Origin: Elusimicrobiota bacterium
Lineage (GTDB): Bacteria > Elusimicrobiota > UBA8919
Assembly (NCBI GenBank): GCA_016218625.1
Contig: JACRDL010000045.1
Coordinates: 1 to 63,799, forward strand
Reading direction: 5' to 3'
Length of the DNA: 63,799 nucleotides
In this document: positions 5,709 through 31,951 of the stretch, one piece after another
How positions within the stretch are numbered: the stretch's first letter is position 1
Layout: each line of letters starts with the position of its first letter
Made by a program: the position numbers and the translations under genes
Notes under the pieces: model-generated
Databases searched by the model: none
The model's input: the letters and a program-made list of their open reading frames with translations, nothing else
What the model was told of the DNA's origin: nothing

Positions 5709-7134
5709 AATTGTTTTTCCTATATTTGCATTTGTATTAGCAGTTTTTTTGATTTTGCTTATTTTTCATCGTGAGGTTGTTATTGATGAAGGAGTTTATC
5801 TTTATGCAGGTAAATTAGTGTCTGAAGGTAAAATTCCTTATTTGGATTTCGCACATGTTCAGGGGCCTTTATTTCCATTTTTTTACGGAATTATAAATTT
5901 ATTGATTGGAAGCGATATTTTTATTAACAGGATTATTACAGCATTTTTCGGTTTCTGTGGACTTATTTTTGCCGGTTTGATTGTAAGGAAAATCGGAGGC
6001 AATATCGCTGCGATTATATTTTTTTTATTCTGTCTCACAAGTGTTTATATGTTGAGTCATTATGTTGTTGTTGCCACATATGGGATAACTGCTTTTTTTC
6101 TTTATCTGGCAATTTATCTTGCACTTAATAAAAACTGCATTTTTTTATCATATTTTTTTTTAGGAATTACGCTGTCAATTCGTTTGAGCACTGCCATATT
6201 GGTTCCGGTTTTCATTTTTTATTTTATAATTAGTAATAAGAAAAAAACAAAAATTTCTTTAGAGTATTCGTTAATTTTAATTTTACTTTTTTGTGCAATT
6301 TTTTTACCGTTTATTATTAAAGCACCCAATGTATTTTTTTATAATATACTTGGCAAACATCTTACCATTTTAAGCATAAAACAAAGATTATTGATGACCG
6401 GCAGTGTGTTTTTTGCAAATATTAAAGATTACGCAGTTTTATTGCTGGTAACCCTATTGAGTTTTTTGTCTCTTATTAAGACAAGCACCGAAAATTTCAG
6501 TAAATTTCTTTTTCTTTTTTTGGTGTTTATCTTTTTATTTATTGCCAATCTTTTGCCAGTAGCAAGCCGTGGGAGTTATTATAATTCTCTTAATCTACCG
6601 ATATTATTTATGATAATTGGATTAGCAACGGCAAAGATGATAAAGACCGAAAAAAAAATAGCGGCTGTAATTCCGATTATACTTTTTATGAATTTTGCCG
6701 AGCAATCCGTACTGGTGAAAAAACATAAACTTATATCGGAAGAAAATGCAATGACAAAGATAAAAGAAGAAGCAAAATTTATAGAGATGGACATATTACC
6801 AAGCAGGAATCTATTGACATTTAGTACTCTTTTAACAGTTCAATCAAACCTGAATATACCGATTGAGTTTGCAGAAGATTGTTTTTCGTATAAAGGCGAT
6901 TGGTTGACCGATAAATGCAAAAAGTATAAAAGAGTAAATAACGAAATTTTTATGGATTATGTTTCAGATAAAGGAATAAGGTTAATTGCTCTTGGTGATT
7001 TTGACTTATATCAATTTGGAGAAAATAAAAAAATCATATTACAGAAAATGGAGAAATCAGGATTTACTTATGTTAAAAAAATTGAAAATTTCGGCCAGTG
7101 GCATGACAATCTTTATATTTTTACGAGGAAGTGA
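5671..7134 (+). CDS. polytopic GT-C-like membrane protein
   Basis: 487 aa, multi-TM. The first loop (IDEGVYLYAGKLVSEGKIPYLDF) is like PMT_2/GT-C families. The TTG start is uncertain. Confidence 0.45.
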   Translation: MFQLKTLSGNSDKIVFPIFAFVLAVFLILLIFHREVVIDEGVYLYAGKLVSEGKIPYLDFAHVQGPLFPFFYGIINLLIGSDIFINRIITAFFGFCGLIFAGLIVRKIGGNIAAIIFFLFCLTSVYMLSHYVVVATYGITAFFLYLAIYLALNKNCIFLSYFFLGITLSIRLSTAILVPVFIFYFIISNKKKTKISLEYSLILILLFCAIFLPFIIKAPNVFFYNILGKHLTILSIKQRLLMTGSVFFANIKDYAVLLLVTLLSFLSLIKTSTENFSKFLFLFLVFIFLFIANLLPVASRGSYYNSLNLPILFMIIGLATAKMIKTEKKIAAVIPIILFMNFAEQSVLVKKHKLISEENAMTKIKEEAKFIEMDILPSRNLLTFSTLLTVQSNLNIPIEFAEDCFSYKGDWLTDKCKKYKRVNNEIFMDYVSDKGIRLIALGDFDLYQFGENKKIILQKMEKSGFTYVKKIENFGQWHDNLYIFTRK

Positions 7135-7631
7135 AAAAATTGAAATCTACAAGTGCTGAAGAAACAGAAAAAACAGGCAAAAAAATAGCCATGACAGTTA
7201 AACCATTTGATGTTATCTGTCTTTTTGGCTCACTTGGGGCAGGTAAAACTGTGTTTGTGCAAGGTATATGTAAAGGCCTCGCGGTTAAAGATTTTGTCAA
7301 CAGTCCTTCTTTTAAGATTGTTAACGAATACAGAGGAAAATTTCCGGTTTACCCCGAACCTCGTCAAAAACCCCGTTTTTCTAAGACGGGTATGGGTAAA
7401 CGGCAAAAATTTACGAGGTGCGGGGTTTATCATATTGATTTATATCGTTTGAATTCTGCAGGAGAAATAAATGATTTAGGACTTGACGAATATATTTATG
7501 GGAATGGAATTGCAATTATTGAATGGGCTGAAAAATTGGGCAAAAAAAATTTGCCGAAAAAAAGAATAGAAATTTATATAAAAATTAAAAGTGAAAATGA
7601 GAGAGAAATAAAATGGCGGCGATATCCATAG
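7131..7631 (+). CDS. tsaE: tRNA t6A37 biosynthesis ATPase TsaE, carrying an in-frame palindromic insertion
   Basis: Walker A GSLGAGKT, then SPSFKIVNEY ... VYHIDLYRL. About 25 extra residues lie between these conserved blocks. Confidence 0.8.
   Translation: MKKLKSTSAEETEKTGKKIAMTVKPFDVICLFGSLGAGKTVFVQGICKGLAVKDFVNSPSFKIVNEYRGKFPVYPEPRQKPRFSKTGMGKRQKFTRCGVYHIDLYRLNSAGEINDLGLDEYIYGNGIAIIEWAEKLGKKNLPKKRIEIYIKIKSENEREIKWRRYP
7348..7429. repeat. TTTACCCCG...CGGGGTTTA palindromic mini-element, copy 1 (in frame inside tsaE)
   Basis: ACCCCGAACCTCGT (7351-7364) and ACGAGGTGCGGGGT (7413-7426) are inverted repeats with 1 mismatch. There is an inner CCCGT/ACGGG stem. Confidence 0.75.
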
Positions 7632-9523: not shown

Positions 9524-10172
9524 AACATCGGGTAGCATTTGCGGTGCCGCTGTGATAAACAGTGATAAAATTATTGCCGAGAAAAATATTTTTTTGCCAA
9601 AAAATTCGTCCTCCAAAATTTTTGATATTATAAAAAATATCGCAAAGAAAAACTTACAGTTTAATGCAATCGCAGTTGATGTGGGTCCCGGTTCTTTTAC
9701 CGGTATAAGAGTTGGCGTTTCTCTGGCTCGGGCTTACGGACAATTTCTGAAATTACCTGTTATCGGCGTTTCGTGTCTGGATTGTTTGGTTTTCAACGCA
9801 TTAAAAGACGCTACGCTAAAAAATGTTTCGGGAAAAATTTTCCCGATAGTAGATGCACTCCGCGGCGAAGTTTACACGGCAGAGTATGGGGGGCTAAAAA
9901 GAAAAACAAAATATAAAATAATTAAGGTTGAAAAATTCTTAAAAATGTTGGATAATAAATCAACGGTTATCGGCAATAGGGAAATTTGTAAAAAAATTTC
10001 CATGAAAAAATGCGTTATTATTAACGTATCCGCTTCTTCCGTCGGATTTACGGCGTTAAATAAATTTAAAAAAAATAAAAAGCACAATTATAATGAAGTT
10101 CTGCCTTTGTATATAAGGAGGGCTTTTGCCCAAGAGCATTATGCCGATTGTAAATCGACAAAAAGATACTGA
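9504..10172 (+). CDS. tsaB: tRNA t6A37 biosynthesis protein TsaB
   Basis: KILAIETSGSICGAAV and GPGSFTGIRVGVSLARA motifs. ATG at 9504 is preferred over TTG at 9498. Confidence 0.8.
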   Translation: MKILAIETSGSICGAAVINSDKIIAEKNIFLPKNSSSKIFDIIKNIAKKNLQFNAIAVDVGPGSFTGIRVGVSLARAYGQFLKLPVIGVSCLDCLVFNALKDATLKNVSGKIFPIVDALRGEVYTAEYGGLKRKTKYKIIKVEKFLKMLDNKSTVIGNREICKKISMKKCVIINVSASSVGFTALNKFKKNKKHNYNEVLPLYIRRAFAQEHYADCKSTKRY

Positions 10173-28191: not shown

Positions 28192-28719
28192 ATGAAAGAA
28201 ACTATTAAACTCGGAAAATATCTTTTTATAATCTGTGCTGTTGCTGGTGTTACGCTTGCCGTCACCAATTATTTTACTACAAAAAAAATTGTTTCTCAAA
28301 AACTGAAGGATGAAAACGCTGCACTTAAAGAGGTTTTGCCGGTTGCTTTTTGTTTTGAAGTAAAAAATACTTTTCCAAAGAACGGTTATGACGAAAAAAA
28401 TAATATGGTCGGTTATGTTCTAAAAGTAATCGTAACCGGATATTCAAGCGAGATTTCGGCATTGGTCGGAATTGACAGGGACTTTAAGATAACCGGTGTA
28501 AAAATACTTTCACAGAACGAAACTCCCGGTCTTGGTTCAAAAATATCCGAGAAACATTTCCTTTTGCAATTTATCGGCAAATTTTCGGAAAAAATATTAT
28601 TGAAGAAAGATGCTCAAACCGGTGAAATTGACGGTGTTACATCGGCTACAATTTCTTCGCGGGCAATTACCGATGCTATAAGGAAAAATATAGATGAGTT
28701 CAAAAAAACTGTTAAGTGA
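28192..28719 (+). CDS. rnfG: Rnf complex subunit G
   Basis: N-terminal TM helix, FMN-binding domain, DGVTSATISSRAI motif. Confidence 0.85.
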   Translation: MKETIKLGKYLFIICAVAGVTLAVTNYFTTKKIVSQKLKDENAALKEVLPVAFCFEVKNTFPKNGYDEKNNMVGYVLKVIVTGYSSEISALVGIDRDFKITGVKILSQNETPGLGSKISEKHFLLQFIGKFSEKILLKKDAQTGEIDGVTSATISSRAITDAIRKNIDEFKKTVK

Positions 28720-29332
28720 ATTTACCCCGTTAGAAATGGCGTCCCGCAAAGCGGGATTTCTAACGGGGTTTACAAAAGGAATAATTAAAGAAAATCCTGT
28801 TCTGGGTTTGATGCTCGGGCTTTGCTCGGTGCTTGCCGTCTCAACCGAGGTAAAAAATGCAATCGGAATGGGTTGTGCGATGACATTCGTGCTTTTGGGT
28901 TCAAACATTTTGGTTTCGCTGCTTCGCAAAACAATCCCGCAAAAAGTCCGCATCCCGGTATTTTTAATAGTCATCGGTTCTTTCACGACAATTGTGGATT
29001 TAGTGATGAATGCATATGCCCCCGCTATTCACAAAAACCTCGGAATTTTTATCCCGTTGATTGTCGTCAATTGCATAATTATTGCTCGGGCGGAGGCGTT
29101 TGCGGCAAAAAAACAGATTTTGGAATCAGTAATAGATGCTCTCGGAATGGGTTTCGGATATACTTTGGTTTTATTTGTTATAGCGACAATAAGAGAGATT
29201 TCAGGCAATGGGACTTTTTCCGGCGTAAAACTTTTTGCTGAATTTAATCCGGTTTTAGTTATGATGTTGCCGCCCGGTGCGTTCATTACAATAGGACTGC
29301 TAATGGCAGTTTTGAGAGCGATAAAAAAATAA
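28694..29332 (+). CDS. rnfE: Rnf complex subunit E
   Basis: KENPVLGLMLGLC..LAVS plus conserved TM pattern. The start is ATG 28694 or the in-frame ATG 28736, which lies inside a palindrome. Confidence 0.85.
   Translation: MSSKKLLSEFTPLEMASRKAGFLTGFTKGIIKENPVLGLMLGLCSVLAVSTEVKNAIGMGCAMTFVLLGSNILVSLLRKTIPQKVRIPVFLIVIGSFTTIVDLVMNAYAPAIHKNLGIFIPLIVVNCIIIARAEAFAAKKQILESVIDALGMGFGYTLVLFVIATIREISGNGTFSGVKLFAEFNPVLVMMLPPGAFITIGLLMAVLRAIKK
28721..28772. repeat. TTTACCCCG...CGGGGTTTA palindromic mini-element, copy 2 (5' coding end of rnfE)
   Basis: Perfect 14-bp arms ACCCCGTTAGAAAT and ATTTCTAACGGGGT. Inner stem TCCCGC-aaa-GCGGGA. Confidence 0.85.
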
Positions 29333-31420: not shown

Positions 31421-31510
31421 GTATCGGAAACTGAAAGGCGCCACAGAACCACACAGAAAAAGAACACAGAAATAACTTCTGTGAACTTCTGTGAAATTCT
31501 GTGGCTTATA
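31421..31510. repeat. CACAGAA-word hairpin, near-identical paralog of 48421-48520
   Basis: GTATCGGAA..GCGCCACAGAACCACACAGAAA...TTCTGTGAAATTCTGTGGCTTAT. A 22-nt block is identical to the other copy. Confidence 0.85.
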
Positions 31511-31540
31511 GTGGAGTCCTTGCGAAAGCAAGGTTATCTT

Positions 31541-31951
31541 GTGGAAGAAATTGCAACAGTAGTTGAAATTTCCGGCAACAGATTAAAATTGTCATTTACC
31601 CTGTTAGATAGTAAACATCTAACGGGGTTTACCCGCCAAGAGATGTGTAAAAAATGTGGTTCCTGCCAAAAATCAGAGAATGGTATAATGTATCTTGAAC
31701 TTGAAAACAGCATCGGTGCAAAGGTTGGCGATAAAGTTCTCGTTAAAATTGAGCCGTCAAACCTAAAAATCTCGGCAATACTTTACGGAATCCCTTCCAC
31801 TATGCTTATCATCGGTATTTTTTTGGGATATTTTTTATTCAATTCGGAAATTTATGGATTTTTAACCGGATTTATTTTTTTATTCATTTCATTTTTAGTA
31901 ATTAAAAAATCTATAAAAAAATACAAACCAAAAATAGAAAAAATAATTTGA
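31541..31951 (+). CDS. rseC: RseC/MucC-family protein (SoxR-reducing-system-associated)
   Basis: VEEIATVVEISGN.., CKKCGSCQ, and two C-terminal TM helices. GTG 31541 is preferred because the longer ORF starts inside the hairpin. Confidence 0.6.
   Translation: MEEIATVVEISGNRLKLSFTLLDSKHLTGFTRQEMCKKCGSCQKSENGIMYLELENSIGAKVGDKVLVKIEPSNLKISAILYGIPSTMLIIGIFLGYFLFNSEIYGFLTGFIFLFISFLVIKKSIKKYKPKIEKII
31595..31631. repeat. TTTACCCYG...CGGGGTTTA palindromic mini-element, copy 3 (in frame inside rseC)
   Basis: ACCCTGTTAGAT pairs with ATCTAACGGGGT (1 mismatch). Encodes FTLLDSKHLTGFT. Confidence 0.75.

Follow-up and report, generated by a model that had tools for sequence, protein, structure and literature searches.

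The closest published systems to the palindromes described here are the Ssn nucleases with their SRM repeats and the Rickettsia palindromic elements (RPEs). Ssn proteins are GIY-YIG nucleases of a single domain; they bind to hairpin repeats on either side of their own genes and cleave single-stranded DNA upstream of these repeats (Chenal et al. 2025, Nat Commun, PMC11893778). They were published in 2025 as tools and transformation regulators, and their authors remarked that the repeat–gene–repeat arrangement resembles an insertion sequence (IS) and suggested domestication (PMC11893778). The RPEs (Ogata et al. 2000, as summarized in PMC10969869) are described in that summary as in-frame palindromes of ~100–150 bp in unrelated housekeeping genes. 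Two other classes of small repeats bear comparison, namely the repetitive extragenic palindromes (REP/REPIN), which are GTAG- and CGTC-tagged and are accompanied by RAYT (Y1 HUH) transposases (Di Nocera et al. [quoted passage not shown] Here, we analyzed contig JACRDL010000045.1 (C19 in our numbering; the window, 63,799 nt in full) of an Elusimicrobiota genome (G000, assembly GCA_016218625.1; 1.81 Mb, 38% G+C, 124 contigs, 86% complete), in which the gene tsaE carries a 74-nt palindrome in frame. This insert is probably a non-autonomous derivative of a tiny element that encodes a GIY-YIG nuclease, tolerated in frame by its host, and that nuclease may be what moves it. Full-text searches of the literature turned up no account of bacterial GIY-YIG elements that have inverted repeats at their ends, nor of miniature in-frame derivatives of them.

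The product of the interrupted gene is recognizable as TsaE by its profile match, its Walker A motif and its YHxDLYR block. The Pfam profile PF02367 matches it (E 3e-36) in two stretches divided by the insert, and the alignment with the TsaE structures 5NP9/5MVR (E 4e-28) is broken exactly at the insert. With the Bacillus subtilis protein (5NP9), the split falls at Leu76–Tyr77, where both of the VY copies encoded by the flanking repeats can be aligned. The protein thus reads SPSFKIVNEYRGKFP, then the insert residues VYPEPRQKPRFSKTGMGKRQKFTRCG, then VYHIDLYRL; the conserved motifs are intact, with G36, G38, K39, T40, H101, D103 and R106 invariant in the alignment. A preliminary description of this stretch, made from its letters alone, had placed an in-frame palindromic element with 14-nt arms and one mismatch at 7348–7429 of tsaE. 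The element is present as described there, the extra residues number 26, and the arms are 13 nt long with one mismatch, or 14 nt if the flanking A/T is counted. Folded as single-stranded DNA, the element reaches −16.7 kcal/mol (z = −2.4).

The same description had expected a surface loop on the TsaE structure, and the AlphaFold2 model of the protein with its insert (mean pLDDT 86, pTM 0.82) agrees, in that residues 74–92 are predicted as a low-confidence tip prolonging the hairpin of strands 64–73 and 93–103. This loop tolerates insertions generally. A separate TsaE clade has five extra residues there, and an ENA contig (L061, protein P0018) carries an unrelated, non-palindromic insert of 11 residues, LNWHVKCLEPC, in the same loop.

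Was the palindrome added to the gene, or is it an old part of it? We searched relatives with a TsaE sequence from which the insert had been removed. TsaE is uninterrupted in nine of them, namely G001 (96% identity), G002 and G003, which belong to the same genus as G000, five members of the same family, and G021. The empty site GGTTTATCAT, with a single TTTA, was found in G001–G005, G007, G008 and G010, and the DNA of the relatives runs through TTTCCGGTTTATCAT where G000 has TTTCCGGTTTA, the 74 nt and then TTTATCAT. A precise absence of 78 nt is also seen in contigs of 90–95% likeness from one landfill run and from two runs of the source study. In a collection of 5.8 billion proteins, the 26 residues are confined, within the 120 nearest TsaE clusters, to the proteins of G000 and of G006, which is a genome of another genus of the same family. 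In the assembled contigs of the source sample, only the inserted form is present at ≥99% likeness. The insert is therefore DNA that was added to an ancestrally uninterrupted gene, and it consists of a 74-nt palindrome plus a second TTTA. The empty sites that the preliminary description had proposed to look for were thus found in nine relatives as well as in three related metagenome populations.

It had also pointed to copies with the same termini in rnfE (28721–28772) and rseC (31595–31631), and had measured the three elements at 82, 52 and 37 nt. Both copies are indeed present and in frame, and the three spans are correct and preserve the reading frame. However, TTTA occurs only once at the empty sites of the relatives, and it is therefore the flanking repeat and not a part of the termini, so that the inserted DNA amounts to 78, 48 and 33 nt. 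The arms of the tsaE copy are also of another type. Its left arm, whose ancestral form was probably CCCCGCACCTCGT, belongs to a rare type unlike the CCCYGTTAGA... arms of the rnfE and rseC copies. The three have in common only the CCCCG/CGGGG tips, the 13-bp stem, the 4-nt repeat and a total length divisible by three (3n).

Could the insert instead be a lineage-specific functional loop of TsaE, with the palindrome serving as a regulatory RNA or DNA hairpin that never moved? Two genomes of different genera do hold an open 26-codon insert at the same site, and the loop does vary elsewhere in the family (5 aa in one clade, 11 aa in P0018). Nevertheless, the closest relatives (96% aa and 90–95% nt identity) lack the insert precisely at the TTTA repeat, and its tips, stem length and flank rule are those of ~55 dispersed copies. 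Moreover, as set out below, it contains the remnant of a GIY-YIG gene, and its arms are found again in another organism, in a gene unrelated to tsaE. The empty sites speak strongly against this explanation, which we regard as exceedingly unlikely.

The dispersed copies have the ends CCCYGTTAGARRT...AYYTCTAACRGGG. The search pattern suggested in the preliminary description, which begins with the flanking repeat (TTTACCCYG...CGGGGTTTA), recovered only four copies, whereas the core without TTTA, CCCYGTTAG...CTAACRGGG, recovered ~55 distinct elements in G000, those within genes having 3n lengths. Exactly 44 nt is the size of 33 of them; others measure 26, 29, 32 or 38 nt, variants with A+T-rich loops measure 55–67 nt, and the whole range is 26–97 nt. 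A shuffled genome yielded one palindrome of this kind compared with 65 in G000, and the strict 44-nt pattern was found 29 times compared with none for a reversed-pattern control; chance falls far short of these numbers. The canonical unit is composed of a 13-bp outer stem, a 5-nt bulge and a 5-bp inner hairpin with a 3-nt loop; the copy in rnfE folds with z = −7.1. When 43 distinct copies from several phyla were compared with 500 shuffles, 95% of the cells were paired (99% in the outer 13-bp arms), and all five pairs of the inner stem covaried, with 108 double-change cells compared with 35 in the shuffles, none of which reached 108. In many copies, the inner 18-mer folds into two overlapping hairpins that are shifted by 5 nt relative to each other, and both strands therefore fold alike. 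There were no Rfam matches between positions 7000 and 32000 at E values up to 1. The traits of the superfamily as a whole are CCCYG...CRGGG tips, a stem of ~13 bp, a variable inner hairpin, a 4-nt YNNR repeat and lengths of 3n−4.

Together with one repeat, the elements add 48, 33, 30, 36 or 42 nt. Frame 0 of the element contains TAG and TAA, and the other two frames are open on both strands. Copies would survive in genes because element plus repeat is 3n and two of the three frames per strand are free of stops. Inside open reading frames (ORFs) of ≥150 codons lie 62% of the copies, compared with a genome background of 86%, and the Pfam-confirmed hosts include dnaE, mutS, uvrB (two copies), topA, dnaX, yidC and murE. 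All copies truly inside genes are 3n and stop-free, and the 55–67-nt variants are mostly intergenic and not 3n.

These observations also bear on whether the inserts are translated at all, since they might be skipped by ribosome bypassing, as in phage T4 gene 60 and the mitochondrial 'byp' elements, or be removed from the mRNA. The identical tetranucleotides around a stable hairpin, which often fall on codons (GTT TA / GTT TA), superficially resemble take-off and landing sites. But a skipped sequence would escape constraint, whereas the genic copies are all 3n and free of stops and the intergenic variants of 55–97 nt often are not; no Rfam family matches; and the decayed copy of G006 remains open and in frame although its fold is lost (z = +0.6). 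Skipping is, on this evidence, very improbable.

The elements have multiplied recently in this genome. About 70% have identical 4-nt flanks (TTGA, TAAA, TTTA, TCAA, TGAA, CAAG, CTTG, CGTG or CACG), which form YNNR. We reconstructed 53 empty sites by deleting the element and 4 nt, concatenated them and searched for them in five relatives; the length difference was 0 at most of the sites found. In the G001 alignments, the target tetranucleotide is present once at 10 of 14 sites, among them rnfE (GTGAA, TTTA, CAAAAGG), rseC and eight more, so that these copies are younger than the separation from G001, a genome with 96% identity in TsaE. Copies are also nested: in one subfamily, CGTG/CACG at the tip of the inner hairpin has received three different guest elements, and one 92-nt nested composite occurs twice in G000. 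With its empty sites and ~55 copies, the family bears out the preliminary description of a selfish palindrome that is tolerated in frame as the RPEs are but belongs to a separate family, the separation from the RPEs being made by description.

The copies with non-identical flanks follow a pattern of their own. Two copies in uvrB and one at C80:6862 read TTCA–element–TAAA, where the empty site has only TAAA, and at C21, C99 and C41:64257 the additional TGAA stands on the other side, which amounts to an identical arrangement when read from the opposite strand. Wherever the polarity could be established, the added tetranucleotide was TTCA (or TGAA, depending on the strand). Five of these cases have a defined inner orientation, and in them TTCA stands 5' of the bulge-first strand. 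Other phyla also show the TTCA/TAAA pair. The impression is that one tetranucleotide can be carried along by the element.

This has consequences for a further explanation, in which the palindromes are ordinary MITEs of DDE-type ISs (IS1380 or IS5-like) that make 4-bp staggered cuts and the GIY-YIG gene is a passenger. Terminal inverted repeats together with a 4-bp direct repeat of two-fold symmetric YNNR are what a symmetric transpososome would produce, and G000 has four DDE_Tnp_1 genes. On the other hand, non-identical flanks with a recurrent TTCA are not expected of DDE duplication. None of the four DDE genes has matching ends, no pair of ends bounding a transposase was found in G000 (at 0.3–6 kb) or in five other genomes, and DDE_Tnp_1 is missing from G301 (18 termini per strand) and from four element-bearing genomes of the candidate phyla radiation (CPR). 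We therefore consider a DDE origin unlikely. In G000, a gene for a DDE transposase of 446 aa (C82:22813–23517) belongs to an intact IS that is unrelated to the minis; the long inverted repeats (..CCTGAAAAATGCGGGAAA..) lie ~120 nt upstream of the gene and 70 nt downstream.

The elements are also polarized. The strand on which the bulge lies 5' of the inner hairpin is co-oriented with the GC skew and the gene strand in 19 of 22 copies. In G000, gene strand is tightly coupled to GC skew, 609 of 640 ORFs of ≥300 codons (95%) being co-oriented. The polarity holds for all five intergenic copies, which selection on an encoded peptide cannot explain and a strand-specific process can; it fits an enzyme that acts on one particular strand of single-stranded DNA. 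An idea modeled on IS608, in which a guide sequence would choose the target, was dropped, as flank tetranucleotides were by inspection uncorrelated with subfamily or with the variable stem positions.

Single-strand movement is also what is ascribed to REP/REPIN-type repeats, and the palindromes may be thought to move as hairpins through a RAYT or an IS200-like Y1 (HUH) transposase. The asymmetric-bulge hairpins with their 19:3 strand and orientation bias would suit such an enzyme, and Y1_Tnp (PF01797) is at hand: G000 has four copies, 11 of 13 relatives have the gene, and so do 7 of 9 genomes from other phyla in which the element occurs. However, none of 22 inspected Y1 loci (4 in G000, 18 in other genomes) adjoins an element or a CCCYG..CRGGG palindrome of the family. 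The lone REPtron-like Y1 gene of G000, on contig C2, has a different hairpin, GCACGGTCTGTGACCGTGC, the elements bear no GTAG or CGTC tag, and relatives without the element have Y1 genes just as commonly. Furthermore, GIY-YIG is the only gene ever found between these ends. A Y1 transposase is thus an improbable driver. The Y1 gene (IS200/RAYT-like) of contig C2 (C2:9339–9554), with its hairpin both upstream and downstream, is a separate REPtron-like unit.

The GIY-YIG gene was not foreseen in the preliminary description. One Nitrospinota, one Omnitrophota and one Saccharibacteria genome contain elements of 279–282 nt with the same 13-bp ends, which are homologous to one another (77% and 55–58% identity). 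Gene-bearing elements overall measure 265–315 nt, and their sole ORF, of 84–93 aa, fills the space between the ends; in one example, MVYTYVIKSKKDNKFYTGTTSDLRKRFREHNEGKVISTKNRGPFELIYYEGCTDKEDAFTRERYLKTGMGKRYLNNRLKRFLSLTG, the last residues come from the inverted repeat and the TAA stop is supplied by the TAAA flank. These ORFs are single-domain Pfam GIY-YIG proteins (PF01541, E 9e-19 and 3e-17), and among solved structures the UPF0213 protein 1ZG2 comes closest (E 2e-7). Nearer to G000, 277-nt GIY-YIG elements with canonical ends occur in G007 and G010, a 265-nt element with ends CCCCGTGAGATAA and flanks TTCA..TAAA occurs in G001, and G017 has GIY-YIG elements with ends CCCCGCACCTTTT and CCCCGCCCTTTTGAGA. 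The end types of these parents mirror the arm types of the minis, the tsaE type included. At L129, L130, L135, L137, L142 and L156, the gene has the hairpin repeat on both sides, and the repeat is also dispersed as minis. The G001 element together with a TGAA (269 nt) is absent from the orthologous site of G000 (C113:7264), and at least one gene-bearing element is thus itself an insertion relative to G000. In the source metagenome, several contigs end in ...RYLKTGMGKR followed by the inverted repeat. At the end of a contig in G302 (L129, C123:3157–3553), two GIY-YIG elements follow each other head to tail with 4 nt between them. In L085 and L100, what looked like 3-kb elements proved to be ordinary genes with a chance terminus.

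The tsaE insert is linked to these parents by what lies between its arms. In the tsaE frame, it reads ...FSKTGMGKRQKF..., and its segment AAGACGGGTATGGGTAAACGG is identical at 18 of 21 nt to the YLKTGMGKRYL region of the Omnitrophota element L129. In a six-frame translation of G000, the motif K[TS][GA]xG[KR]R occurred only in the tsaE insert, apart from one weak chance match. The first 10 nt of the left arm are those of the ends of the G017 GIY-YIG element L142. The arm type recurs at positions 10070–10140 of the metagenome contig L109, where a 71-nt copy with TTTA/TTTA flanks (71 + 4 = 75) lies in frame inside a 498-aa membrane ORF. The insert thus retains a piece of a GIY-YIG gene; given this remnant and the arm type shared with L109, the most fitting interpretation is that of a GIY-YIG element, rare in its end type, that has suffered an internal deletion. 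The mini-palindromes in general would likewise be MITE-like internal-deletion derivatives of GIY-YIG elements, and the G000 tsaE copy is probably a non-autonomous relic that is immobile.

How could such elements move? We propose that the nuclease, supplied in trans, would mobilize the mini-palindromes. By analogy with the Ssn nucleases, it would recognize the hairpin on single-stranded DNA and cut beside it, and host repair or ligation would finish the insertion next to a YNNR tetranucleotide. The ribosome would then read through the copy, and the host protein would gain a surface loop of 10–26 residues, which in TsaE would lengthen the β-hairpin before VYHIDLYRL. A bolder proposal, which we make only tentatively, is that the 265–315-bp GIY-YIG units are autonomous transposons of a prokaryotic class not yet recognized and the smallest known, which would cut hairpins and leave the joining to the host, and would spawn hairpin-only minis down to 26 nt that, being 3n with their flank and stop-free, could colonize essential genes of gene-dense genomes in at least seven phyla; the tsaE insert would then be a fossil intermediate between parent and mini.

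A number of observations weigh against the origin of the tsaE insert from a mobile GIY-YIG element. We know of no strand-transfer activity of a GIY-YIG hydrolase, and the joining step is therefore unexplained. Some 30% of the copies have non-identical flanks, and given the recurrent extra TTCA, a simple staggered-cut duplication does not account for them. No close homologue of the end-bounded GIY-YIG gene is present in the 86%-complete assembly of G000, whose GIY-YIG content is only a YhbQ-like gene without such ends, which leaves the recent burst without a visible driver here; nor did G000 contain any pair of ends 0.3–6 kb apart other than separate minis. Co-occurrence is only modest, with the parent present in 3 of 5 genomes with minis compared with 4 of 36 without among 41 relatives (hypergeometric p ~0.03, an estimate). 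The tsaE-type 74-mer had no copy besides those in the tsaE genes of G000 and G006 among 301 Elusimicrobiota genomes. Finally, G006 carries a decayed homologous copy at the same site.

The G006 insert is 78 nt long, lies at the same TTTA and is 70% identical without indels. It has lost the fold seen in G000 (z = +0.6 compared with −2.4) yet is open and in frame. It follows that parallel insertion, precise losses or transfer must have occurred, and an old insertion followed by several precise losses, two insertions at a hot spot, and transfer are all possible. The flanks in G000 resemble those of G001, unlike those of G006, which argues against the transfer of a large patch, and the nearly intact arms in G000 compared with the decayed arms in G006 argue for different ages. 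Compensatory changes in the arms were considered as well, but the two paired changes between G000 and G006 match chance expectation given the decay and are no evidence. The G006 insert is also the one case that touches on a homologous, non-palindromic insertion in unrelated lineages, which the preliminary description had named as speaking against its reading; no such insertion was found, as this one is a degraded palindrome in the same taxonomic family. The other circumstance named there, a lack of further copies, does not hold in a genome with ~55 of them. Elsewhere, a target site has been re-used by two subfamilies. The TCAA site at C113:8276, which holds a canonical copy in G000, holds a CCCCGC-type palindrome, CCCCGCTCTTTCTTGAAAAGACCCTTAGAGAGGGCGGGG, with TCAA/TCAA flanks at the orthologous position in G003 (L047, C24:26581–26842).

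Beyond G000, the strict 44-nt pattern occurs in 4 of 40 relatives, one to four times each. A wide search with this pattern in 185,579 species genomes gave 47 loci, 33 of them with identical 4-nt flanks, in Omnitrophota, Planctomycetota, Saccharibacteria, Yanofskybacteria, Nitrospinota, Nitrospirota, Dissulfurispiraceae, Syntrophorhabdaceae and Elusimicrobiota (by phylum, including Desulfobacterota). The same 13-bp ends are found in at least seven phyla, and some inner sequences are identical across phyla, such as the ATCACGGCGTGATACGCC type in a Planctomycetia genome and in G000. When every 13-mer terminus was listed in five other genomes, element sizes ranged from 32 to 282 nt. There were no matches in 2.9 million viral contigs searched for phage carriage.

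How does this family compare with the described systems? As with Ssn, the nuclease is a single-domain GIY-YIG protein of ~85–100 aa (84–93 aa here, in relatives and other phyla and not in the G000 assembly), hairpin inverted repeats lie on both sides of its gene, and the repeats are directional and dispersed in many copies. A GIY-YIG gene of G060, homologous to the parent protein (40% identity, E 2e-9), is itself flanked by dRS3/NTS-like ATTCCCGCG hairpins. On the other hand, the repeat here is CCCYGTTAGA... (CCCCGTTAGAAAT..ATTTCTAACGGGG), compared with CGTCATTCCCGCG...GCGGGAATC for SRM/NTS (PMC11893778), the ORF fills the whole element and can borrow its stop codon from the flank, and insertion is directly evident from empty sites, 4-nt flanking repeats and nesting, whereas Ssn has been framed as a domesticated transformation regulator and not as an active transposon (PMC11893778).

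The likeness to the RPEs lies in the in-frame palindromes within unrelated intact genes and in the presence of copies in both coding and non-coding DNA, the RPEs being, according to the summary in PMC10969869, translated and compatible with the protein fold. Compared by description rather than by sequence, the elements here are much shorter (26–97 nt, mostly 44, compared with ~100–150 bp in that summary, PMC10969869). They also have a clear 4-nt flanking repeat and a gene-bearing parent, and their hosts are free-living groundwater Elusimicrobiota and many other phyla.

REP/REPIN sequences are similar in being high-copy hairpins of 20–45 nt, some of them inside replication and repair genes, and in that their movement as single-stranded hairpins is attributed to an enzyme whose own gene has the same flanking repeats. 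They differ in that the present elements have invariant CCCYG / CRGGG ends without a GTAG/CGTC tag or a RAYT association, a 4-nt flanking repeat, a GIY-YIG instead of an HUH candidate enzyme, and a majority of copies inside ORFs, REPs being predominantly extragenic. With MITEs such as Correia/NEMIS of Neisseria and RUP of pneumococci, the family shares terminal inverted repeats, target-site duplication, the lack of coding capacity and a longer parent. Unlike them, it lies below the usual size with its mode of 44 nt, its parent encodes a nuclease and no recognized transposase, and a sizeable minority of the flanks are odd, with the recurrent TTCA. Finally, 'peel and paste' single-strand transposition of IS200/IS605 elements, reportedly described by Ton-Hoang, Guynet, Chandler, Dyda and colleagues, offers a parallel in its hairpin ends and replication strand bias, and in drawing one tetranucleotide from the element and the other from the target, a topology suggested here by TTCA–element–TAAA. 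The enzyme class is different, however, and those elements have fixed target tetranucleotides and no duplication, whereas the flanks here are mostly identical but variable.

The coordinates of the tsaE insert, of the other two copies in the window and of a set of intergenic variants are given in Table 1. When flanked by TTGA, these A+T-rich-loop variants of 55–67 nt give rise to a near-consensus promoter (TTGACC-N17-TATAAT, as in TTGACCCCGTTAGAAATTTTTTGTATAAT) and may be portable promoters. At C45:21068–21104, a 29-nt member has entered the GFT codons of a type IV pilin-like N-terminus, ..GFT[PYRDKSLTGFT]LIELMIVVA, and duplicates the prepilin cleavage motif. Further palindromes with CCCCGC..GCGGGG tips and TGAA/TGAA flanks lie at C106:42804–42900 and C107:15164–15232; their arms, CCCCGCYCCT, are unlike those of the other members and similar to the ends of L156, a GIY-YIG element of G017.

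Table 1. Positions of the tsaE insert, its parts and other family members (window coordinates unless another contig of G000 is named).
Feature	Position	Strand	Remarks
tsaE coding sequence	7131..7631	+	166 codons from a GTG start; intact, carries the insert; Pfam PF02367, E 3e-36
Left flanking direct repeat TTTA (4 nt)	7348..7351	+	single TTTA in relatives
Palindromic non-autonomous element, 74 nt	7352..7425	+	with one repeat, 78 nt = 26 codons
Left arm CCCCGAACCTCGT, terminal inverted repeat	7352..7364	+	complementary to 7413–7425 with 1 mismatch
GIY-YIG nuclease gene remnant (3' part) AAGACGGGTATGGGTAAACGG	7383..7403	+	encodes KTGMGKR, in frame with tsaE
Right arm ACGAGGTGCGGGG	7413..7425	+	pairs with the left arm in the computed fold
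Right flanking repeat TTTA	7426..7429	+	from comparison with relatives
rnfE/rnfA-type Rnf subunit gene	28694..29332	+	Pfam PF02508, E 3e-63; canonical element near the N-terminus
Canonical 44-nt element CCCCGTTAGAAAT-GGCGT-CCCGC-AAA-GCGGG-ATTTCTAACGGGG	28725..28768	+	TTTA at 28721–28724 and 28769–28772
rseC/mucC-like gene	31481..31951	+	Pfam PF04246 (RseC_MucC), E 6e-22; hosts the short element
29-nt short member CCCTGTTAGAT-AGTAAAC-ATCTAACGGGG	31599..31627	+	TTTA at 31595–31598 and 31628–31631; 29 + 4 = 33
Promoter-like intergenic variants	C16:154-225, C23:5601-5674, C62:4719-4791, C11:7919-7990, C74:4937-5007, C103:16476-16538		all outside the window

The smallest insertion sequences measure ~700 bp. 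If a GIY-YIG nuclease does mobilize these elements, the size floor for an autonomous mobile element would fall to ~270 bp, and a new chemistry would enter prokaryotic DNA transposition. It would also provide a plausible natural role for Ssn-type nucleases. For annotation, the inserts matter because they split profile matches, as in TsaE, and break assemblies. For the hosts, the family indicates that gene-dense genomes tolerate a selfish repeat because the repeat is translatable, with DnaE, DnaX, MutS, UvrB, TopA, YidC, MurE and TsaE gaining loops of 10–32 residues as a consequence.

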